This document shows positions 650 through 27,250 of a DNA stretch of 64,000 nt, piece after piece. The stretch is from an uncultured Candidatus Saccharibacteria bacterium (lineage in GTDB: Bacteria; Patescibacteriota; Minisyncoccia; UBA6257; 2-01-FULL-56-20). The notes under the pieces are model-generated. The model did not search any database. It saw only the letters and a program-made list of their open reading frames with translations, and was not told the DNA's origin. A program made the translations under genes and the position numbers. The stretch spans positions 5,641 to 69,640 of the forward strand of contig CAYHXC010000002.1 of the NCBI GenBank assembly GCA_964360585.1, written 5' to 3'. The stretch's first letter is position 1. Every line of letters begins with the position of its first letter.

Positions 650-1741
650 ATGAAGTTACAGAGAACGGCCTGGCACTTCCGAGTGTACATGAAGGCCTAC
701 GTCACCGATCGTTCCTGGCTCGATCATGGGAACATCGGTCCGGTAGAACGTCCGAGACTACTGGAAGAAGAGGCTTATCACGCATTTGAGGAGAAGATGC
801 GGAGTATGCCCCCCGAACAGCAGTTCGGACAGGAAACGCGAGATGAGTTACTGAAACTCGAGGGAGCGTGGCAGAAGGCCGACAATGACTGGCGCCAAGA
901 GCAGGAAGCGGCCTACACAGAAAGCAGATCTCGTGAAGTCCGGGAACGACTGTATGCGGGAAAGACCTCGCTCTGTCCGTACTTCTGGAGTGTCGTCTTC
1001 GGCCTGGTGATCTACTACGGCGTCGTCCGTAGTACCCGGCCTATCTGGCAGATGTTCAGTCGGATCGCCATCTCTGAAGCCGCCGCCCTGTCTGCCATAG
1101 GTCTTGTGATCGTAGCTTTCATCGGCTATGGAGCTTACGAAAGCTGGAACGAGATCCCGACTCCGAGACAATTCGTCACGGGTATCGTGGTCGACGTCCA
1201 GCGATCTCGACAGAGGAGTGCAGAAGATGCCGCGTCGCAAGCAGCTTACGAGGCACTGCGACTCCGAGAACGACAAGCGTGGGAAGTAGCCCATCCGGAA
1301 GAAGTGGCGCATCGTCACCAACAACAGGTGGCGTACGAGCAAGAACAGGAACAACGGAATGTAGCCCGGCGAGCCGCTATGTGGTCGAAATTCAAAAAAG
1401 ACTTCAAGCGACTCTCCGTGGAAGGTGGCCTGTTCCTCGCCAAGCTCCTCGCTCTTTTCGTCGGAGGATTGGCAGCTCTCGCCCTTCTGTTCTACATTCT
1501 CGGCCGGACTTTCACCTTTCTGGCATGGCTCCTTCGGCCCATCGCCAGACGATTGTCCTTCCGATCGGTGCCGGAAACGGGAATTCGCGCCTGGATAGTT
1601 CGCCAGCTACAGCGAGTGGTGGGTGCATGGGTAGCGTGGCAGCAGTTCTGGAAAGAAACTCGCGAGCTCGTCGGTGCATTTGCCTGGGCAAGATATAAGA
1701 AGCTCTGCCCGTACCTTGAAGTCGCGAACAGCGAGAACTAA
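650..1741 (+). CDS. hypothetical membrane protein (GC-rich, charged QE-rich segments plus TM helices)
   Basis: 363-aa ORF with several hydrophobic helices. GC is clearly higher than most of the window. Confidence 0.5.
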   Translation: MKLQRTAWHFRVYMKAYVTDRSWLDHGNIGPVERPRLLEEEAYHAFEEKMRSMPPEQQFGQETRDELLKLEGAWQKADNDWRQEQEAAYTESRSREVRERLYAGKTSLCPYFWSVVFGLVIYYGVVRSTRPIWQMFSRIAISEAAALSAIGLVIVAFIGYGAYESWNEIPTPRQFVTGIVVDVQRSRQRSAEDAASQAAYEALRLRERQAWEVAHPEEVAHRHQQQVAYEQEQEQRNVARRAAMWSKFKKDFKRLSVEGGLFLAKLLALFVGGLAALALLFYILGRTFTFLAWLLRPIARRLSFRSVPETGIRAWIVRQLQRVVGAWVAWQQFWKETRELVGAFAWARYKKLCPYLEVANSEN

Positions 1742-1856
1742 GTTTGGATCTTGCGAGCCTGCAACTCTTCGGAGTTGTGGGCTCTTTTAAATTTATATTT
1801 TCGAAATTTCTTTTTGCCTCAATTACTTGACCCTCCACTACAAACTCAAGAAAAAG

Positions 1857-1893
1857 AAAAACACCCTGACGAGTAAGGTGTTTTTCTTTTTGA
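1857..1893. terminator. hairpin terminator (aaaaacacc/ggtgttttt stem plus T-run)
   Basis: A 9-bp perfect stem with an 11-nt loop followed by ctttttg. It follows the 650..1741 gene. Confidence 0.45.
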
Positions 1894-2084
1894 TCGGGCT
1901 GCCCTCCTTCACTTATCAGTTTCGAAGGACACAGTAAAACTATGGCGGACAAGAAAGCTTCGGCAAAGCTGAGCTTAGCTCTGCGGGACAAGCGAACCCG
2001 AAGCCATTCTTCTTTTTGGTCGGGCTGCCCTCCTTCGTTAAAAACTACGGACGGGCAAGCCGGGAATGGTTCGATGAAGCTCAC

Positions 2085-2125
2085 CACAAGTCGAACCCGG
2101 TCTTTACGAACCTTCATCCCTCACC
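2085..2125 (-). pseudogene. degenerate copy of the tRNA-Pro 3' half (anticodon-stem/T-arm segment)
   Basis: Minus strand reads GGTTCGTAAAGACCGGGTTCGACTT. The intact tRNA-Pro has GGTTCGTAAAGACCGGGTTCAATTCCCGG. No cloverleaf can be closed. Confidence 0.5.
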
Positions 2126-2131
2126 TTTTGT

Positions 2132-2193
2132 TGGTCGGGGTACCCGGAATCGAACCGGGACCACACGCACCCTTGTCCCGTTAGAGAATGATC
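2132..2193 (-). pseudogene. tRNA 3' fragment (T-arm, acceptor 3' strand TACCCCG, discriminator A, encoded CCA) with no 5' half adjacent
   Basis: Minus strand reads ...GGTCCCGGTTCGATTCCGGGTACCCCGACCA. The T-stem is CCCGG/CCGGG with a TTCGATT loop. The matching CGGGGTA 5' strand lies on the other side of tRNA-Pro. Confidence 0.55.
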
Positions 2194-2195
2194 AG

Positions 2196-2266
2196 TCGGG
2201 CCGCCGGGAATTGAACCCGGTCTTTACGAACCCGAATCGCACGTACTACCGGTATACTACGGCCCG
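2196..2266 (-). tRNA. tRNA-Pro (anticodon CGG)
   Basis: Minus strand reads CGGGCCGTAGTATACCGGTAGTACGTGCGATTCGGGTTCGTAAAGACCGGGTTCAATTCCCGGCGGCCCGA. It has a 7-bp acceptor, anticodon loop TTCGGGT, T-stem CCGGG/CCCGG with TTCAATT loop, and no encoded CCA. Confidence 0.8.
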
Positions 2267-2316
2267 GTAATTCTCTAGCGGGATGAACGTGCGTACTACC
2301 ACTATACTATACCCCG
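2267..2316 (-). pseudogene. tRNA 5' fragment (acceptor 5' strand CGGGGTA plus D-arm) complementary to the 3' fragment at 2132..2193
   Basis: Minus strand reads CGGGGTATAGTATAGTGGTAGTACGCACGTTCATCC. The D-arm is near-identical to tRNA-Pro. CGGGGTA pairs perfectly with TACCCCG of the downstream fragment. Confidence 0.5.
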
Positions 2317-2546
2317 TATGTTTAAAAGGTGAGGGACAGGTCGCACGCCTGCCCGTCCGTAGTTCTGCATCGCAGAACGAAGGCGGGTACTACTCGCCTC
2401 GCTGACTCGGCCTTCGTAGCCACTCTGGCGAAGAAGACAACTCGAGCGAAGCGGGCCGGTATATCCCGACGTTACAGTCGGGATTCCGACTTCCTCATTA
2501 TATTCAAAATAGTGCGTCGGGACTACAGCTCGTTTGCAAATCAACT

Positions 2547-2939
2547 TTAGTGTCCCTTATTGTCCTCACTACCGTCAAGCTGAACAGGCTTACCCGAAGG
2601 AAAAGGAACATTCTCAGTAGAAACATTTTTCCATCTTCCTGATTCAACCGCTTGTCGTACGGCGGCCAGAGGATCTTCACGGAATGCCTGGCTCAGATGT
2701 TTCTCATCGTACCAAAGTGTATGTCCATCCGGAAATTCTTGGAATATTTCTTTCGTTACTCCATTACCGTCGAGCTCAAGAGTGCTTTTTATTTGAGTCG
2801 CAAGATCTTCAAAAACAACTCGTTCCAACCGACCGGTCGCTTGGTTAATCATGTGTGTGATCTTTATGCCTTCTTCGATTTTCATCAGATAGCGCCAGTG
2901 ACGCTCTTTCGGTTCACTCGGCTGTTCAAAAGGATTCAT
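2547..2939 (-). CDS. hypothetical protein
   Basis: 130-aa ORF with coding-like composition and no recognised motif. Confidence 0.5.
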   Translation of the reverse strand: MNPFEQPSEPKERHWRYLMKIEEGIKITHMINQATGRLERVVFEDLATQIKSTLELDGNGVTKEIFQEFPDGHTLWYDEKHLSQAFREDPLAAVRQAVESGRWKNVSTENVPFPSGKPVQLDGSEDNKGH

Positions 2940-2943
2940 AGAT

Positions 2944-4548
2944 TTATTTCACAAAAAATTTCTTTTTCATCTCCTCGTCGAGGCCGGACTGAAACTCCTC
3001 TTTGCGATTCTTAGCGGCAACCGCAATTTTTTTGAGCTCCGTATCGCTCATCTCTCCTAACGCCTTCACCCGATCTCTCAACCCCTCGGCCACATTCAAT
3101 TTCGGATCATCCAATACTTCTTCAAGAAGAATGGAGAGGATGAAGCCAACTCTGGGACTCGGCGGAATATCCAGAATACTCATCACATCGCTTCCGGTTA
3201 GTTTCAGCATTTTTGGCGAGATCGGATCATTCTTCACTTTTTCGATCATAAATAAAAGGTGCCGAATCTTGTACGGCACGGCCTTCGGTACACCCGAACC
3301 AATGCGATCAGCCTCACGCAATTTTATGAGATCATCAATATTTTCCGGACCAACCCGTGCTAAAAATCGTCGCACGCCGGCCTCGGTTACTTCGCCGACG
3401 TTGTAGTAAAACATGTGCGATCGGACAAGATGAGCCACATACTCCACAAAATCCTTGCCAAACCGAAGATCATCTAAAATCTGGAGCGTCATCTTCCCGC
3501 CAACCAACTCGTGATTATAGAACGTGGGCGGACTGCCTGGTCGCTTCGTTCGTGGCTTCCCCACATCATGCAGTAACGAGGCCACACGCACTTCGAGCGA
3601 ATAATTTTTCTTGGCCGAGTATTCCAGCGCTCGCAAGTTGTGTTCGAAAACTGTATAGATATGATGCCGCTCCTGGGATACGCCCAAACCTTCGCGCAAC
3701 TCCGGGAGAACATATTTCAAAAGATTCAGTTCTTCGAGAAGCACGATTCCCGCGGCCGCCCGATCAGACATGATAATTTTCACGAACTCGTCGCGGATAC
3801 GTTCCTTGGCAATCATTTCTAAAAGTCCTGCCTTGGCTTCAATCGCTTTCCGTGTTTCCGGGTCAATCTGAAAATCAAGTTCAGTCGCGAACCGCATCGC
3901 CCGCATTAAGCGCAGCGCGTCCTCGTTAAATCGTTCCTCCGGTTTCCCCACGGTCCGAATAGTTCGCGATTCCAGATCATCCTCCCCCCCAAATGGATCA
4001 ATAAGCTGGAAGGTTCTAGTTGTTCTATCTTCGCCGCTTGGCGAATCGTTCAATCGCTTCGCTCGTTCTAGCCGATTGCCTCTAACGACTCGAACGACTT
4101 CAACGTTTCGAACGTTTCTCACGTCCAACGCCATGGCGTTCACGGTGAAGTCGCGGCGCGAGAGATCCTCCTCAACCGTTTTTGCAAATCGCACTTCGTC
4201 CGGATGGCGCTTGTCGGTATACTTCCCTTCTTCGCGAAACGTCGTAACCTCAATAATTTTTAAGCGCGGATCTTCCGACTCGGTTTTTACACCAACCGTG
4301 CCAAACTGATTTTCGTAGACACTTTCGATAAATACTTTTTGAATCTGTTCCGGCGTGGCGTCGGTCGCAATATCCCAGTCTTTCGGCTCGCGCGCCAATA
4401 TGAGATCACGCACACAGCCACCAACCAGATAGGCCTGATACCCCACCTTAACAAGCGTATTTGCCGCTTCCTGAACCTCGTCGGGAATGTTCCTTAAATC
4501 TCTCATGGACATTGATACTACTATACGCAAAGCGGCGACGAATGACAA
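2944..4548 (-). CDS. cca: CCA-adding enzyme / tRNA nucleotidyltransferase with C-terminal HD domain
   Basis: Contains GGCVRDLILAREPKDWDIATDATPEQI (the PolyA_pol head with the DxD motif) and a C-terminal HD region (LLHDVGKP). The true start may be the internal Met at about 4512. Confidence 0.85.
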   Translation of the reverse strand: MSFVAALRIVVSMSMRDLRNIPDEVQEAANTLVKVGYQAYLVGGCVRDLILAREPKDWDIATDATPEQIQKVFIESVYENQFGTVGVKTESEDPRLKIIEVTTFREEGKYTDKRHPDEVRFAKTVEEDLSRRDFTVNAMALDVRNVRNVEVVRVVRGNRLERAKRLNDSPSGEDRTTRTFQLIDPFGGEDDLESRTIRTVGKPEERFNEDALRLMRAMRFATELDFQIDPETRKAIEAKAGLLEMIAKERIRDEFVKIIMSDRAAAGIVLLEELNLLKYVLPELREGLGVSQERHHIYTVFEHNLRALEYSAKKNYSLEVRVASLLHDVGKPRTKRPGSPPTFYNHELVGGKMTLQILDDLRFGKDFVEYVAHLVRSHMFYYNVGEVTEAGVRRFLARVGPENIDDLIKLREADRIGSGVPKAVPYKIRHLLFMIEKVKNDPISPKMLKLTGSDVMSILDIPPSPRVGFILSILLEEVLDDPKLNVAEGLRDRVKALGEMSDTELKKIAVAAKNRKEEFQSGLDEEMKKKFFVK

Positions 4549-4694: not shown

Positions 4695-5393
4695 TCAGGA
4701 ATTGCGAGAAAAGACCCGACGGCCGCCGTACCACCTGATGCCGCCCAAGGCACCGGCGCGCACGCCCCAGCCGTCATCACGCCAATCGACGTACACGGAA
4801 CGCAGCACGCTATTCACGTCGCGAACGTAGAAGATGTTCGCCCACCCGTTGTTGAGCAGGGCACCTTCTCCACCGTTCGACTGGGCAACCATGAGCCGCC
4901 AGATTTCCGAGAGAGTAACTTCCGCGACAGCTTCGCCACCGAGGTCGGCGATGACCTCGCTGTCGTTGGCGCTCTGGGTCAGCGTGAGTGGAACGAGCAA
5001 GCCGTCCGGCACGTCTTCCTCCACTTTGCTGGCAAACCAGCTAATGAAGTTCAAGCCATGCTCGACCATCTTCACACCGGACGACTTCGAGAAGAAAGTA
5101 TCATCCGCCTTGAACGGGCAGGATTCGACGGGCTTCGGCGCGACGGGACGGAGCACCTTGCGGATACGGGGTTTCTTCGGGCGGGTGCGGATGGCATCCA
5201 CCATTACGACGATCGCGGCCTTGGTCTCCTTTATCACAAACTGGCGATCAACCCTACTGAGAGCATTGAAACCTGTTTGATGAGCGACCAGTTCGCCCAC
5301 CAGTCTTGACGTTTGTGGATCCTGTTCTGCGGTCATAGCTTTCCTCCTTTTTGACCGTTTCAACAAAGTCCTGCTGTTGGGCTTGGCCTTCAT
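4695..5393 (-). CDS. hypothetical protein (GC-rich, likely acquired)
   Basis: 232-aa ORF with GC near 60 percent, well above its neighbours. The probable start is MTAEQDP at about 5336. Confidence 0.5.
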   Translation of the reverse strand: MKAKPNSRTLLKRSKRRKAMTAEQDPQTSRLVGELVAHQTGFNALSRVDRQFVIKETKAAIVVMVDAIRTRPKKPRIRKVLRPVAPKPVESCPFKADDTFFSKSSGVKMVEHGLNFISWFASKVEEDVPDGLLVPLTLTQSANDSEVIADLGGEAVAEVTLSEIWRLMVAQSNGGEGALLNNGWANIFYVRDVNSVLRSVYVDWRDDGWGVRAGALGGIRWYGGRRVFSRNS

Positions 5394-5508: not shown

Positions 5509-5793
5509 TCAGCGGATTTGAGCGCCAAACTCAGTCTTTGATTTTTCCTCTAAAGCTTTGTGCATCACGTCTACTTCTTCGTTGGTAAGTGTTCGGTCGT
5601 TGTTTCTATAGATAACGCGATAGGTGTAGCTTTTCTTATCTTTTCCAAACTTTTCCTCATTTTCATATTGATCCAGGAGTTCTACCTGCTCCACTAAATC
5701 TCCAGCCACATCACGGACTAAATCAAAATAATTATTTGGCGCGAAAGTTTTTGGCGAGCAAGCAAGGTGAGAGGTCTTGCGAGGCGAAGCCAT
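5509..5793 (-). pseudogene. duplicated, diverged 3' end of pheS (FDX-ACB-like C-terminal ~85 aa)
   Basis: Translation ...PKTFAPNNYFDLVRDVAGDLVEQVELLDQYENEEKFGKDKKSYTYRVIYRNNDRTLTNEEVDVMHKALEEKSKTEFGAQIR is near-identical to the pheS C-terminus at 6871..7125. Nucleotide identity is about 78 percent and extends about 40 bp past the stop. Confidence 0.7.
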
Positions 5794-5919: not shown

Positions 5920-6756
5920 CTACTCGGACTTCCGGGCAGAGGCGACACCAAGAAGAACGTAACGGACGTCGTCCCAGAAGCTGCCGACGAACAGACCATC
6001 CGAGCCGAAGTAACCAACAACGACCCGGATCCCGTCCGAATCCAGAGACATCGTACGGACGTAGAGATTCGGGAATAGCCGCTCTCCCGTGACCAAGAAG
6101 TACAAGACCACGGCATAGACGAGTTCGCACGCCCGGGGCACCTCTTCGCACTCGGAGAGCAACGCCTTCTGGTCATCGAAATTCTTCGACGTCGAGCCCA
6201 CGACCGCTTCTTTGCGAATCAGGTACCAACGGACCTCGAGCTTCTCGTCCTTCGCGAACGACTGGTTGTTGTACCACGCATCCTTGTAGGAGTAGAACGT
6301 CTTCGGCTTCTTGTTGGGTGCTTTTGCGCGCACGTCCAAGATCGTCATCGGAAATCCGGCAACCAGGATGTGCGTATCCTTGCACTTCTCCAGCACGACT
6401 TCCGAGAATGGGATCTCGGCAAGCAACGCGAGCTGCTCCTCGGTGTACGCTGCGCCAAATTGACGCACGACTTCCTCGATGCCGAGGTAGTTTTTGCCCA
6501 TAATCTCGCGGGCGCGGATCTGGGACGGCGTGGGTTTGTAGTTCACGATCACGGCAGAGATTGAGGCGATGATGCCGTTCCCCGCAACAAGCGCGACTAC
6601 CTTCTCGAACAGCTCTTCGTCGTGGGCGAGTTTCGCCCAGAAGTTCTGCCCAGCTCCGACCTTACGGCCGGTGACGACTGCTTCGTGGATGAGTCCGTTA
6701 TCCTTTCCGAAATTTTCACAGCTCTCATCCAGACGCACCATGGTATTTGCTGTCAT
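5920..6756 (-). CDS. hypothetical protein (GC-rich)
   Basis: 278-aa ORF lying between the pheS fragment and intact pheS. GC is elevated. Confidence 0.55.
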   Translation of the reverse strand: MTANTMVRLDESCENFGKDNGLIHEAVVTGRKVGAGQNFWAKLAHDEELFEKVVALVAGNGIIASISAVIVNYKPTPSQIRAREIMGKNYLGIEEVVRQFGAAYTEEQLALLAEIPFSEVVLEKCKDTHILVAGFPMTILDVRAKAPNKKPKTFYSYKDAWYNNQSFAKDEKLEVRWYLIRKEAVVGSTSKNFDDQKALLSECEEVPRACELVYAVVLYFLVTGERLFPNLYVRTMSLDSDGIRVVVGYFGSDGLFVGSFWDDVRYVLLGVASARKSE

Positions 6757-6870: not shown

Positions 6871-8031
6871 TTAGCGAATTTGGGCGCCAAACTCGGTTTT
6901 CGATTTTTCCTCAAGCGCCTTATGAAGCACGTCTACCTCTTCATTCGTCAATGTTCGATCACTACTGCGATAGATAACACGATAGGCATAACTCTTTTTA
7001 TCGGCGCCAAATTTCTCCGCGTTTTCATACTCATCAATCAACTCCACTTGCTCCACCAGATCACCCGCCACGTCGCGAACAAGATCAAAGTAATTATTCG
7101 GCGCAAATGTTTTTGGCACGACGAAAGAAATATCGCGAGTCACCGGCGGATACTTACTCACCTCCTGGAACTTCGTTCCCATCGTGAGCTGCTTCGTCAC
7201 CCGCTCGTCTTTGGACCAGAGAAGCCGAATATCCGGCAGTTCCATGCTACTAATAGCGAGCCGGTCCAAGCCGAATCCAAAGGCCCAACCGTTGTAGCCT
7301 TCGAGACCGAAGTTTTTCAAAACACTCTTTTTCGGCATTCCCCCGCCAAGCAACTCAATCCACTGGCCATTAATCTGAATCTCTACTTCGAGCGACGGAT
7401 CGGTATAAGGAAATGTATCCGGATTAAAACGATACACCGTCGACTCACCGAAAATTCCTTTTACAATCTGACTCAACACATTTTTAAGATCATCCAACAC
7501 CATCATTCCCTGGCTATCAGGCTGGAGATACAAACCACCGAACTGATGGAAGATGTTCATATGGCGACGATCGATCTCGTCCTTGCGATAGACCTTGCCG
7601 TAACAAACCACACCGAGCGGTTCCTGTTTGGCAATCTTTGCTTTGATCTCGGGAAGATTTAAATAGTAGTACCACATGACGGTGTCATGCGTACGCAAAA
7701 TATTTTTCGGATCGGCATAGTAGGTATCCGAAGCGCTTCGCGCCGGGTGGTCCGGAGCAAAGTCGAACAGATCAAAACTAACATCGACCGGCACAATCTC
7801 CGGAATAATGATGTTGTCAAAGTTCGCAAGCGCCGGAACCCGCTTTACCGATTCCACAATTTCGTGGAGCGGACTTGTCGTCGTGCGCGACAGATCGTCC
7901 ATCGCCAAGTACCGCTTAATCCGTCCGGCCTCGGCGTCAGTGCGCGGCTCGAGCGTCTTCCGAACCTGGTTTTCGTTGTCTCGATCAATCGTATATTCGG
8001 CTGACTGGGTAAGGGGCGAAGTGAAATCCAT
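6871..8031 (-). CDS. pheS: phenylalanine--tRNA ligase alpha subunit
   Basis: Carries the class II aaRS core (FPYTDPSLEVEI, GWAFGFGLDRLA) and ends ...SKTEFGAQIR. Confidence 0.95.
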   Translation of the reverse strand: MDFTSPLTQSAEYTIDRDNENQVRKTLEPRTDAEAGRIKRYLAMDDLSRTTTSPLHEIVESVKRVPALANFDNIIIPEIVPVDVSFDLFDFAPDHPARSASDTYYADPKNILRTHDTVMWYYYLNLPEIKAKIAKQEPLGVVCYGKVYRKDEIDRRHMNIFHQFGGLYLQPDSQGMMVLDDLKNVLSQIVKGIFGESTVYRFNPDTFPYTDPSLEVEIQINGQWIELLGGGMPKKSVLKNFGLEGYNGWAFGFGLDRLAISSMELPDIRLLWSKDERVTKQLTMGTKFQEVSKYPPVTRDISFVVPKTFAPNNYFDLVRDVAGDLVEQVELIDEYENAEKFGADKKSYAYRVIYRSSDRTLTNEEVDVLHKALEEKSKTEFGAQIR

Positions 8032-8145
8032 CCCGTTAGAAGCAGATCGCGATCAACGCATCCACACAATTATGTAATTTCAGGTTCGACATTTCATTAA
8101 AAAGCCCAGGGAAGCCAACTAAGCGATCGCGGCTTCTAACGGGAT
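8027..8145. promoter_or_regulatory. long-range inverted repeat (cccgttagaagc-gatcgcg ... cgatcgcggcttctaacggg) abutting the pheS start codon
   Basis: On the pheS mRNA, ...cttctaacgggATG lies directly before the start codon. It is complementary to a segment about 100 nt upstream. Confidence 0.5.
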
Positions 8146-8216: not shown

Positions 8217-10259
8217 TTACTGGGTCTTCAGATTAAAACACGCCCGAAATATGTCTAAAGATTCCCCAGGTTTTTGGAGACAGCGGATTCCTTGCTTCGC
8301 ATAACCATTCTTTAAAGAAAACGAGAGGGCGTTGGTAAAAGATTTCTCCGCTCCACTTCGGTCTCCTATGCCAACGTGAGCCAGTCCTAAACGCACCCAC
8401 AGATCGGCCACATCTTTGCGATTCTCATCTTTATACGGATTAATCCAAGCGATTGATCGAAAGGCCTCCGGTGTGTGCTCGACTACGATTGGCTCGAGAA
8501 AATCAATGATGGCTTGGTAGTTCTTTTCTTCAAGATATAGATTGGAAAGCTCGCGGTAGGCAGAAAAAAGCATGAAATGGTCGTGGTCCGTGGCGGTCAT
8601 AAAATCAGTTTCAGCTGCCGCCAAATCTCCCTCCAACTTACGAGCCTGTCCGCGTAGATAGAAAAGATAGGGATCCTTCGGTCGTGTCCTCAAGGCTTCC
8701 GTAATTTCTTGGAACGCCCGCAATCGATACAGAACTCTCTCTTTTTCATCTGGCACGCCAGAGGCCAGCCGCAGAGAAAGAATAGCCAAGTCGCGGTGGT
8801 AGAGCGGATTCCCGGCATCGCTCCGCACAGCCGCGTCGTACTTTTCGTAGGCCGCACGCATATCACCTTCCGCCAGCGCCATTGAAGCCTCGGTAAAATG
8901 AGCTTCGGCAAGAACACTCATACATCCAAAAATGAGCGCGATGAAACTGAAAACGATCACGAAAAGATTGAAGATAAACGAAAACTGCGTTTTATCTTTT
9001 TTATTTTCCGAGGAAAGATAGAGACGTAACACAATTCCAGCAACAATAAAGAAAAGGAAAACATCGGCCGGAAATATCCAGTCGGCATTAACCATGTTTT
9101 GAAATACGAGAGCCAGAAAACTGCCGACGACCACGTAGAGCATCTGTTCTTCGTGAAGTGAATGATGATTTCTGTTTTTTGTTACCGAAAAAACCATCAC
9201 GAGCAAAGCCGCGAGGAAAAGAACCAGGACCACTCCTCCAAAAATCCCTAACTCCACGAACCCGCGAGCGAGAATATTGTGCGGATCGGTGGTATAGAAC
9301 GTCAGACGATCACGGTACTCGGTCATGGCATCGCCGAAACTGCCCCAACCGACACCGAAGAGTGGACTATACGAAAATATGCGCGCTGACTGATAGAGAT
9401 ACTCAAGGCGGGCAGTCAGTCCGTTTTCCGAAGCGCTTTCCTCTTTAAAAATATCGGTTGGTTGGATCACGCTCGTCCCCGAAGCAACGCTTTGGGGATG
9501 GTTCTTAAACTGAAACGCGGCCGTAGCGAGGAGAATGCTGACCGCCATCAGTAAGAAAAGCGTTGCGCTGCGCCGCCAGATTTTTGAGAACGGCCAGCGG
9601 AGCAAAAACATTGTGATAAGAAACGATCCCAGGAAAGCCAGCGCCGCGCCGCGGGCAAACGTAAAGAAGAGGGTACAAAAAAGAAAAATATTTATGGCAG
9701 CATACCACCACTTTCGGGACTGCTTCGATTCATAGAAAAGAAAACTAGTCGCAAAAAAAAGTGACGGGAGCATAAAGCCGGCAAAAGCATTTTGTTGATA
9801 GAAAACTGATCCTAAGCGAAAGAAAGGATGGGCGCCAAAAAATATGTACAAGCCATAGAGCGAGAAAAGTATCGTGCCCCACAGTAGCCAGGAGAAAAAA
9901 CGCTCAATCTTCGCGAACTCCTTGATAATCGAAGGTGTTTTTATAAATACAATAAAAGCGGAAAAGAATATAAGGAATAACCGCGCTGTGGTATACCGGT
10001 CAAACGAAAAAAATCCCGAGATAAAAATGGAAACAAGAAAGAGAATACACGAGAAAAATACTGTTTTATAAAGACGGCCTCCCAAGAAAACCTCTTCTCG
10101 AAAAAAAAGTACGAGAAGAGTCACAAGCGTAAAAATCATAGCTTGCGCCATCGGTTCCATTCCGCCCATAAAAACGGTCGGCAAAAGAATGAGGGCGACG
10201 ATGGCCACAAAACCAACGTCTTCTTTTGACCACGCCGCCCATAATTTTAAAAAATTCAT
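8217..10259 (-). CDS. polytopic membrane protein, O-antigen-ligase-like (Wzy_C-type) with C-terminal TPR repeats
   Basis: 680-aa ORF with about 12 TM helices followed by a TPR-like C-terminal region. It is paralogous in architecture to 58277..60502. Confidence 0.55.
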   Translation of the reverse strand: MNFLKLWAAWSKEDVGFVAIVALILLPTVFMGGMEPMAQAMIFTLVTLLVLFFREEVFLGGRLYKTVFFSCILFLVSIFISGFFSFDRYTTARLFLIFFSAFIVFIKTPSIIKEFAKIERFFSWLLWGTILFSLYGLYIFFGAHPFFRLGSVFYQQNAFAGFMLPSLFFATSFLFYESKQSRKWWYAAINIFLFCTLFFTFARGAALAFLGSFLITMFLLRWPFSKIWRRSATLFLLMAVSILLATAAFQFKNHPQSVASGTSVIQPTDIFKEESASENGLTARLEYLYQSARIFSYSPLFGVGWGSFGDAMTEYRDRLTFYTTDPHNILARGFVELGIFGGVVLVLFLAALLVMVFSVTKNRNHHSLHEEQMLYVVVGSFLALVFQNMVNADWIFPADVFLFFIVAGIVLRLYLSSENKKDKTQFSFIFNLFVIVFSFIALIFGCMSVLAEAHFTEASMALAEGDMRAAYEKYDAAVRSDAGNPLYHRDLAILSLRLASGVPDEKERVLYRLRAFQEITEALRTRPKDPYLFYLRGQARKLEGDLAAAETDFMTATDHDHFMLFSAYRELSNLYLEEKNYQAIIDFLEPIVVEHTPEAFRSIAWINPYKDENRKDVADLWVRLGLAHVGIGDRSGAEKSFTNALSFSLKNGYAKQGIRCLQKPGESLDIFRACFNLKTQ

Positions 10260-10505
10260 CCCGTTAGAGATAGATCCCGTTTAGAAACAGATCACGATCG
10301 AATAGTTTCTTTACGATATTCCCATTATTGACTATCGACTTTCGAGACCTAGTAGTTTGTGTCATAGAAAGAGTGATCGTGGTTTCTAACGGGATAGGAA
10401 ACGGCTAGGTTTCCGTTTAGACCAAGCACCTGTGTGATTATCATATTTCATTATTATCGGAAACGGTTCTCGAATAACTTTCTGGGAAATCTCTAACGGG
10501 ATTCA
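10257..10505. promoter_or_regulatory. 5' leader with nested cccgttaga / tctaacggg inverted repeats abutting the start codon of the 8217..10259 gene
   Basis: The motif tctctaacggg+ATG is on the coding strand. At least three complementary copies lie upstream (10257-10290, 10364-10400, 10485-10500). Confidence 0.45.
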
Positions 10506-26836: not shown

Positions 26837-27142
26837 ATGGCTTCTCCTATTAACCAAAAGGTACTGAAACACCTAGCGGGCCTGGCTCGGATCGAACTCT
26901 CCGAACGCGAGGAGAAAAAGCTCCTTGACGATCTCCGGTCTATCCTAGCCTATTTTGAAAAACTGGAAGAAGTCGACACGACCGACGTTCCGGCCATGAA
27001 CGGCGGCACCACGCTCCAAAATATCTTTCGCGAAGATAGCGAACGAATCGATACGCAAAAACAGCATGGCGTCGAGAGCTTTCCCGAAGAAGTCGGTGGT
27101 TTTTTGAAAGTTCCCTCTGTTTTCAATCATGATTCCCGTTAG
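26837..27142 (+). CDS. gatC: Asp-tRNA(Asn)/Glu-tRNA(Gln) amidotransferase subunit C
   Basis: Sequence VLKHLAGLARIELSEREEKKLLDDLRSILAYFEKLEEVDTTDV is a typical GatC. Confidence 0.85.
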   Translation: MASPINQKVLKHLAGLARIELSEREEKKLLDDLRSILAYFEKLEEVDTTDVPAMNGGTTLQNIFREDSERIDTQKQHGVESFPEEVGGFLKVPSVFNHDSR

Positions 27143-27250
27143 AGATGCCCAGCTATGATTTACACAACTATTTTAGAACAAACATATCCCTTCAGAAAAA
27201 GCCGGTCAATTTAAACAACGGAAATAATATTTCCTATCTCTAACGGGATG
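27136..27250. promoter_or_regulatory. inverted repeat tcccgttagagat ... atctctaacggga flanking 90 nt; the right arm abuts the gatA ATG
   Basis: 13-bp perfect arms. The start codon of gatA follows the right arm immediately (tctctaacgggATG). Confidence 0.5.

Follow-up and report, generated by a model that had tools for sequence, protein, structure and literature searches.

Genes for transfer RNAs (tRNAs) are interrupted by several kinds of genetic elements and arrangements described so far. Integrative elements that target them, such as prophages and genomic islands, often hit the anticodon or the T loop and restore the gene, and repeated events leave tRNA fragments behind; these elements measure kilobases, encode an integrase and duplicate only the 3′ part of the gene as direct repeats (attL/attR), with no 5′ half left upstream. 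In eukaryotes, Dada transposons show a strict specificity for sites inside tRNA and small nuclear RNA genes, encode a DDE transposase, generate target-site duplications of 6-7 base pairs (bp), rely on multicopy targets and bring no replacement gene (PMC3706591). In Patescibacteria, group I introns have been found in the anticodon loops of tRNA-Asn and tRNA-Asp, at position 35/36 (PMC13011429), and the split, permuted and multi-intron tRNA genes of archaea depend on a bulge-helix-bulge (BHB) motif and a splicing endonuclease for the joining of their halves, their introns having been proposed to be mobile (PMC4090602, PMC3978253). Here we describe a stack of tRNA-Pro genes nested in one another, in a stretch of 64,000 nucleotides (nt) from an uncultured Candidatus Saccharibacteria bacterium (assembly GCA_964360585.1, contig CAYHXC010000002.1, positions 5,641 to 69,640), which will be called the window. 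The stack is probably the outcome of repeated insertions of self-complementing tRNA cassettes into the resident tRNA gene, in which the innermost copy would work and the outer halves would be relics.

The stack is read on the minus strand, and its centre (layer 0) is an intact tRNA-Pro(CGG) without encoded CCA at positions 2196-2266, the single tRNA that both ARAGORN and Rfam call in the region. ARAGORN assigns it to Pro(CGG); it scores 55.7 bits with the Rfam family RF00005 (threshold, 29), shows a canonical 7-nt anticodon loop and covers positions 1-71 of a hidden Markov model (HMM) with E = 9e-20, the model having been built from 60 intact tRNA-Pro(CGG) genes of relatives and applied to a search space of ~1.2 Mb. 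It is presumed to be the sole functional gene of the stack. Around it we find the halves of a disrupted tRNA-Pro(CGG), layer 1. The 5′ half (2285-2316) holds the acceptor strand, the D arm, the 5′ strand of the anticodon stem and the TTC of the loop, reading CGGGGTA-TA-GTATAGTGGTAGTAC-G-CACG-TTC from 2316 to 2285, and HMM positions 1-31 are matched by 2286-2316 (E = 5e-4). The 3′ half (2132-2172) comprises the GGGT of the loop, the 3′ strand of the anticodon stem, the T arm, the acceptor strand TACCCCG, an A and an encoded CCA; it reads GGGT-GCGTG-TGGT-CCCGG-TTCGATT-CCGGG-TACCCCG-A-CCA from 2172 to 2132, with HMM positions 34-71 matched by 2135-2172 (E = 4e-4). Both halves pair 7/7 in the acceptor stem (CGGGGTA at 2310-2316 with TACCCCG), and the D arm, T arm and anticodon stem of this layer are also intact. 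Between the halves and the inner gene lie the arms of an inverted repeat (I1), here called TIR-b. Its left arm ATCCCGCTAGAGAAT (2270-2284) is followed by a 3-nt spacer (2267-2269), and a spacer of 6 nt (2190-2195) comes before the right arm ATTCTCTAACGGGA (2176-2189), with the junction CAA (2173-2175) after it.

A preliminary description of this DNA had already placed an intact tRNA-Pro(CGG) between the halves of a second tRNA linked by a perfect 7-bp acceptor stem, and on both points it was right. The limits that it drew need to be narrowed: its 5′ half (2267-2316) derives from a tRNA at 2285-2316, 2270-2284 being a repeat arm, and its 3′ half (2132-2193) does so at 2132-2172, 2176-2189 being the other arm. 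As for the scoring of the halves with a covariance model, RF00005 gave no match to the outer gene even at E ≤ 10; the halves were detected separately, and only by the sequence HMM, which matches both. The segment 2085-2125, formerly taken for an extra copy of the 3′ half of the inner gene, belongs instead to the 3′ half of a third tRNA-Pro (2052-2116; 5′ remnant, 2337-2355).

This third gene constitutes layer 2, and a second inverted repeat (I7), TIR-a, encloses the whole of layer 1 with arms that are 13/13 complementary (TCCCTCACCTTTT at 2324-2336 and AAAAGGTGAGGGA at 2117-2129). The 5′ remnant of layer 2 preserves the acceptor strand CGGGCAG, the anticodon-stem strand GTGCGA and CCTG, its D arm being deleted, and the 3′ half, which is also marked by the direct repeat D1, runs as TGAA-GGT, TCGTA, AAGA, CCGGG TTCGA, an insertion of 24 nt in the T loop (2067-2090) and TT CCCGG CTTGCCCG. 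TGCGA of the remnant matches TCGTA of the 3′ half in the anticodon stem, HMM positions 35-58 are matched by 2089-2112 (E = 0.57), and a similar T-loop insertion is found in locus L090. Layer 3, more decayed, is the outermost. A less certainly assigned 5′ remnant (GAGTAGTAC C CGCCT TCG, 2378-2395) would represent the end of its D arm, an anticodon-stem strand and the loop down to TTCG, with a break after TTCG that matches L048, and its acceptor 3′ strand with CCA (CAGCCCGACCA) stands at 2017-2027. A second copy of this 3′ end (GAAGGAGGGCAGCCCGATCA, 1891-1910; direct repeats D2 and D3) adjoins a terminator-like hairpin with a U tract (1851-1891), likely the end of the transcript. The stack has therefore at least four layers, and the earlier suggestion of a tRNA gene disrupted by a tRNA-Pro-containing insert applies recursively.

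Two further helices join the outer parts, I2 (2347-2364 with 2043-2060; 18 nt, 94% paired) and I9 (2376-2387 with 2028-2039; 12 nt, 92% paired). Because of such nested long-range helices, the 431 nt of 1990-2420 fold 6.4 standard deviations better than shuffled sequence. Moreover, 847 nt are identical in three replicate assemblies from the same groundwater site, so the nest is no one-off assembly artefact. Decay of the outer layers in the window takes the form of the D-arm loss and the T-loop insertion already mentioned. In this line, dead outer copies in many loci (L017, L096, L102, L110 and L197 among others, besides the window at 2067-2090) gather short palindromic insertions in the T loop or in the 3′ strand of the anticodon stem, for example CCTGCC..GGCAGG or CCCCCACACC..GGTGTGGGGG; at the end of the one in the window, the left flank recurs in inverted form (GGTTCGA...TCGAACC). 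The intact innermost copies that were examined had no insertion of this kind. Upstream of the stack, within 2400-2480 on the same strand, CGGGATATACCGGCCCG is similar to a collapsed tRNA-Pro and GTCGGAATCCCGAC to a T-arm hairpin, both possibly further debris; a TATAAT-like box is located at ~2492-2505.

The neighbouring gene encodes the CCA-adding enzyme (cca). An exact-protein look-up of its open reading frame (ORF) from a TTG start gave no match; this start is probably wrong, and the called gene has 522 amino acids. The best 80 genomic relatives of this protein are all Patescibacteria of the Paceibacteria type, with 58-72% identity, and the organism of the window belongs to this type too. 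In most of these relatives cca is followed by tRNA-Pro(CGG) and often then by tRNA-Ala(CGC). Since this order is conserved, the innermost gene of the stack is the conserved orthologue. The comparison of this locus among relatives, suggested in the preliminary description, revealed an intact tRNA-Pro at the orthologous site of L013 and L027 and a nested one in five of ~66 related genomes (~8%; L017, L025, L048, L051 and L075), with different breakpoints and flanking repeats, as independent events. The flanks of L025 are identical to those of L013, and a cassette of ~130 nt lies inside that very tRNA-Pro gene, the outer copy of which has suffered small deletions, three of them in its 5′ half. 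Two near-identical strains thus provide an empty and a filled site, which demonstrates that insertion gives rise to the nest. Some relatives keep 3′ debris only (L063, L066 and L072). The window and L143 have cassette and junction in common and differ in the distal parts of the outer gene.

Nesting of tRNA in tRNA is common in Patescibacteria, members of the candidate phyla radiation (CPR). A pattern of two Pro-type D arms 12-42 nt apart was matched by at least 120 metagenome contigs and found no match in viral contigs. The nested isoacceptors are CGG, TGG and GGG, and some contigs reach four layers, all of which break at the same point of the anticodon loop in L184. The 5′ fragments end mainly at model positions 26-38 (mode, 30); the start of the 3′ fragments falls mainly at 34-35 and, in another group, at 39-42. 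Complete pairing (7/7) of the outer acceptor stem was observed in 51 of the 62 nests, as compared with 19% for shuffled partners, and both outer halves therefore belong to one gene. Hairpin insertions affect 6/62 outer 3′ halves, and in some nest families the outer gene lacks part or all of its anticodon arm. Downstream of the nests without a near 3′ half, neither a large cargo nor a distal 3′ half was found; such outer 3′ halves are simply lost or decayed. Outer and inner copies of one locus have an identity of 0.73, as against 0.71 for copies from random loci, and identical pairs account for 7%. Since identity is no higher at the same locus, the inner copy is usually not a local copy, and local duplication of the outer gene was rejected as a general explanation. 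In every nest of an unbiased genome-derived sample the inner tRNA has the same orientation as the outer gene.

Genes other than tRNA-Pro are also nested in remnants of their own type, namely Ala(CGC) (8/46), Thr(CGT), Ser(TGA), Arg(TCG/TCT) and Met, at sites in the anticodon, T or D loop. A three-layer alanine nest occupies 3200-3530 of L011. Moreover, the genome of the window itself carries, ~3.4 kb beyond the window start (L199, 2851-2966), a tRNA-Ala(CGC) inside tRNA-Ala remnants that is bounded by the TCCCTCACCCTT repeat, the same one that encloses layer 1 of the proline stack. Altogether, these data show that nests arise by insertion, repeatedly and in many lineages, that a short cassette bounded by repeats is inserted, its complete tRNA agreeing with the target in type and orientation, and that the outer copies erode.

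The repeats around tRNAs are the termini of hairpin elements resembling miniature inverted-repeat transposable elements (MITEs), with which they share terminal inverted repeats (arms of 13-15 nt), small size, lack of coding capacity and multiple copies. A near-perfect inverted repeat flanks 81 of the 174 distinct tRNA-Pro genes of the set, against 7/174 in a shuffled control. In an unbiased set of genomes, five of the eight tRNA-Pro genes with a flanking stem are nested and the stem occurs in three of 56 un-nested genes, so that flanking repeats are essentially confined to nested genes in this sample. The repeats of the inner layers belong to two families of hairpin elements, CCCGTTAGAG and TCCCTCACC, both of which also occur at protein-gene starts in these genomes. 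The TIR-b motif (CCCGTTAGAG / CTCTAACGGG) is over-represented in the window, with 9 matches for 0.9 expected, and 4-5 TIR-b pairs are present there; CCCGTTAGA pairs amount to 60 in 200 loci. The cassette ends formed by the TIR-b pair around the inner tRNA, together with their junction, recur in L143 and related contigs. TIR-a pairs are likewise found at other genes and tRNAs, around the inner tRNA in L017, L087 and L112 and around a nested tRNA-Ala in L199 and L029, and the TCCCTCACC repeat lies at the start of genes in L028 and L112 and flanks tRNA-Ala in L011, L029 and L199. At tRNA sites, the repeat is continuous with the outer anticodon stem and the loop remnants in one long helix.

According to the model that we favour, a cassette would consist of a complete tRNA-Pro with an inverted repeat on one side and its match on the other, the cassette ends being the terminal repeats of MITE-like hairpin families common in these genomes. 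By entering the anticodon loop of the resident tRNA-Pro(CGG), it would split this gene into a 5′ and a 3′ half while its own tRNA takes over the job, and at least three such insertions, each into the innermost copy functional at the time, would have built the present locus. Today only the 71-nt innermost gene would yield a tRNA, and the outer halves would be relics in slow decay. Patescibacteria are presumed to carry essentially single-copy tRNA genes. If this applies here, an insertion into a tRNA loop would be survivable only with a replacement of the same type and orientation, and survival would therefore explain the match between cargo and target. Fitting this account, empty hairpins occur only in outer copies that are already dead, and no tRNA-Pro split by an empty hairpin alone was seen in a locus set that is biased by the pattern used to collect it. 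A single promoter upstream is predicted to drive transcription of the whole stack as far as the terminator (1851-1891). Long coaxial helices, made of the outer acceptor stem and of the anticodon stem continued by the inverted repeat, might pair the halves of each layer with one another and let the inner tRNA fold alone; in this way they would keep the layers from mispairing and perhaps guide processing, by which RNase P, 3′ trimming and the CCA-adding enzyme would release the inner tRNA. As for the mover of the cassette, candidates are a transposase acting in trans and recombination through the homology of the flanking half-tRNAs.

Several observations weigh against this model. Target-site duplications are missing at tRNA sites, whose two flanks are inverted relative to each other (TTCA...TGAA, CTTG...CAAG), whereas direct repeats of 5 nt are found at protein genes; classical cut-and-paste or copy-and-paste transposition is therefore not demonstrated. 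No pair of inverted repeats 300-4000 nt apart with an ORF, as expected for an autonomous element, was present in the 200 loci and the window, no transposase or recombinase was detected near the locus among 10 neighbouring ORFs scanned, and ORF-bearing inserts were not seen. In one nest family (B), the repeat arms have no conserved sequence, which is unusual for ends recognised by a transposase. Cassettes carrying a tRNA are almost never found outside their own tRNA gene, and survivorship alone may not explain such a confinement. Finally, layer 1 of the window is perfectly preserved in all four stems, so that it might still have a residual role.

These difficulties are in part the strengths of a homology-driven homing, in which host recombination, for example after DNA uptake, would use the half-tRNA flanks of the cassette as homology arms against an intact tRNA gene of the same type. 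Such a protein-less selfish tRNA gene, which we regard as a serious though less likely possibility, competes with transposition for the mobility step only and leaves the anatomy of nested relics unchanged. It would account for the identity of cargo and target throughout Pro, Ala, Thr, Arg and Ser at different loops, for the near absence of cassettes elsewhere, for the lack of duplications at tRNA sites and for the lack of both a transposase in the scanned ORFs and an ORF-carrying version of the element. It also fits the existence of a few fixed junction families, with odd loop remnants (TGAAGG, CAAGGGT) common to many loci, and the common cassette and junction of the window and L143, the outer genes of which differ in their distal parts. 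However, arms of ~30 nt are close to the shortest that RecA-type recombination accepts. The first origin of each junction family is left unexplained, many independent ones being needed for the several Pro families and for those of Ala, Arg and Thr, as are the inverted repeats shared with elements at protein genes. Moreover, outer genes of the TGG type have C at the junction position 34 although both strands of their anticodon stem are of the resident type, a combination hard to obtain by crossovers in the arms.

A beneficial role has also to be considered, according to which the host would select the helices as a scaffold for maturation of the inner tRNA, either as an entry for RNase III as in rRNA operons or against mispairing. 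In its favour, repeat arms diverge widely in sequence yet remain ~94% Watson-Crick paired, and the old helices I2 and I9 are still 92-94% paired while the adjacent tRNA parts have decayed. The fold z-score of -6.4 points in the same direction, and the three small deletions in the outer 5′ half of L025, the flanks of which are identical to those of L013, fit selection against a competing 5′ half. Most relatives, however, have an orthologous tRNA-Pro without such stems, so the scaffold is not needed. Among arm mismatches, G.U and A.C are about equally frequent (20 vs 15), with no strand bias; arm pairing is therefore not assignable to RNA rather than DNA, and no RNA-specific signal supports the scaffold. 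It would account for the maintenance of nests and not for their origin, and we consider it improbable.

A functional intron-like or split arrangement, in which the hairpin with the inner tRNA would be cut from the transcript within the anticodon loop and the halves ligated, so that one RNA gives two tRNAs, is very improbable. The four stems and the encoded CCA kept by layer 1 speak for it, as does the TTCGGGT loop that the left TTC and the right GGGT would restore, in a phylum with introns at position 35/36 of tRNA-Asn and tRNA-Asp (PMC13011429). The acceptance by ARAGORN of a layer 1 spliced in silico is uninformative, this program accepting nearly any variant. On the other hand, excision would leave the anticodon arm of layer 1 with one nucleotide too few, decay affects the outer layers, and outer genes of other nest families are missing one strand of the anticodon arm, either the 5′ or the 3′ one, or even the entire arm. 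An Rfam search of 1400-3000 at E ≤ 10 returned nothing but the inner tRNA above chance level, with no Intron_gpI and no ribozyme family, and the insert beyond the tRNA offers only ~40 nt. BHB geometry is absent, since an asymmetric internal loop (UCAU opposite ACAAGGGU) is predicted at the junction and leads into a 13-bp helix; an archaeal-type intron or split tRNA is not supported. The permuted or split tRNA entertained in the preliminary description is unsupported on the same grounds, and the minus-strand order is the normal one of 5′ half, insert and 3′ half.

The last alternative, also raised there, invokes attL/attR-type scars stacked by tRNA-targeting integrases that integrated and excised repeatedly, and it is hardly credible: several 3′-end-like pieces do lie downstream in direct orientation (D1, D2, D6), L063, L066 and L072 have only 3′ debris, and the anticodon and T loops are reportedly the classical integrase sublocations in tRNA genes, as Williams is said to have noted in 2002, but the 5′ halves stand upstream in mirror order around the intact gene, the halves of each pair match one another, the inserts are bounded by inverted and not direct repeats, measure 110-190 nt and hold a complete tRNA with no element body, no integrase was detected among the 10 neighbouring ORFs, and the viral contigs gave no match. 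A tyrosine-integrase model with abutted cassette ends as attP was set aside, there being no direct-repeat core at the two junctions. An IS200/IS605-type model, with TTCAT as its target and no duplication, would be a further candidate.

Relatives of the cassette ends are found at protein genes. The preliminary description had remarked on a tcccgttagag motif in the 3′ half that elsewhere pairs with start-codon regions, and this proved a good lead, the motif being the terminal inverted repeat of a hairpin element that sits directly upstream of the real ATG. Such elements, with termini CCCGTTAGAR / YTCTAACGGG, precede pheS, a Wzy_C-type membrane protein and an amidase gene, and in relatives also cca. 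In the window they are placed at 8032-8143, 10260-10393 (inside 10259-10501) and 27135-27247, and in relatives at 9871-9997 of L001 and 9883-9994 of L057, among others. Direct repeats of 5-6 nt that include the start codon (ATGAA, ATGGAT and others) flank them, and when the cca genes of L057 and L001, which have the element, are set against those of L028 and L003, which lack it, the insertion is seen to follow ATGAA and to have duplicated this pentamer. These cca genes have a -10-like TACAAT ~9 nt before the ATG and therefore look leaderless. In 7 of 17 elements a short ORF runs from an upstream ATG exactly to a TAA in the right repeat, 4 nt before the real ATG, where chance would give ~1/17 by a rough estimate that was not computed; the pheS element of the window encodes MDPVRSRDRLVGFPGLFNEMSNLKLHNCVDALIAICF followed by the stop. 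This pattern suggests termination-reinitiation on leaderless mRNAs.

Other observations concern the neighbouring genes. PheRS (6871-8031, minus strand) is a single protein of 386 amino acids with a class II core and an FDX-ACB anticodon-binding domain, an architecture that recalls the monomeric mitochondrial enzyme and not the usual bacterial alpha2-beta2 form. An ORF of 94 amino acids at 5509-5793 (minus strand) duplicates this C-terminal domain (copy at 6871-7155, minus strand), with ~85-90% identity by eye over ~80 amino acids, and an ORF of 278 amino acids (5920-6756) lies between the duplicate and pheS. Judging from the sequences, the 3′ end of pheS seems to have received an insert that supplied a substitute for the end it displaced, a self-complementing logic like that of the tRNA cassettes. 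Four ORFs around the tRNA stack gave no Pfam family, namely 650-1741 on the plus strand and 2547-2939, 4695-5393 and 5920-6756 on the minus strand. The one of 130 amino acids that separates cca from the stack occurs in every replicate assembly.

If the insertion of self-complementing cassettes is the right explanation, the tRNA genes of a very large bacterial radiation would be turned over by small cassettes that replace what they destroy. This would account for the tRNA debris and the odd tRNA neighbourhoods in CPR genomes, fragments that annotators would have to take as ordered fossils and not as noise, and it would offer a natural stratigraphy, young inside and old outside, to date horizontal transfer and pseudogene decay in uncultured bacteria. 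A mechanistic question would follow, how an element of ~120 nt without a protein finds the one gene that it complements, and compact self-complementing insertion cassettes might serve as a design principle in minimal-genome engineering. The relatives at start codons would suggest that insertions can be tolerated through termination-reinitiation on leaderless mRNAs. As a bolder proposal, to which we lend only tentative credence, the cassettes might represent an undescribed class of tiny selfish replacement elements, hairpin-bounded and protein-less, which home into the gene whose product they carry with homology or the tRNA itself as a guide, drive the horizontal turnover of tRNA alleles and leave datable fossils. 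Were this the case, the sister elements at the start codons of apparently leaderless genes, with a short reading frame and a TAA four bases before the real ATG, would let translation restart, and the whole family would have evolved harmlessness in genomes with almost no spare DNA.

In the searchable literature we found no description of nested tRNA-in-tRNA genes in bacteria, nor of a noncoding cassette of ~120 nt that carries a whole replacement tRNA and builds multi-layer nests. The underlying logic, to insert into a tRNA gene and repair the damage caused, would by analogy be a known one, that of tRNA-targeting integrative elements and self-splicing tRNA introns. With the former, the cassettes share the choice of the anticodon or T loop, the restoration of the gene and the tRNA fragments left by repeated events, but here the insert has 110-190 nt, a complete tRNA as its sole gene, inverted repeats and a symmetric nesting. 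Dada transposons are likewise DNA elements inside tRNA genes, whereas the targets here are presumed to be single-copy, the cargo is the replacement and tRNA sites show no duplication. The group I introns belong to the same phylum, interrupt nearly the same point (35/36, against 34/35 to 37/38) and also make the interruption of an essential gene harmless; they restore the host tRNA by self-splicing, while the stacks contain no ribozyme core and the interrupted gene is given up, its function being restored, on our model, by another gene that the insert carries. As in the archaeal split tRNAs, the DNA encodes the halves apart from each other and they can pair by acceptor and flanking helices, but in a bacterial host, without BHB, with halves that decay and with a complete tRNA between them. 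MITEs and repetitive extragenic palindromic (REP)-type hairpins provide the closest likeness to the ends, being short, noncoding, multi-copy and bounded by inverted repeats, with filled/empty polymorphism and duplication at protein genes as in our elements; they differ in that the cassette cargo, judged from its sequence, is a functional tRNA matching the disrupted target, with no duplication at tRNA sites. As with the nested transposon insertions of eukaryotes, the layering lets the events be ordered in time.

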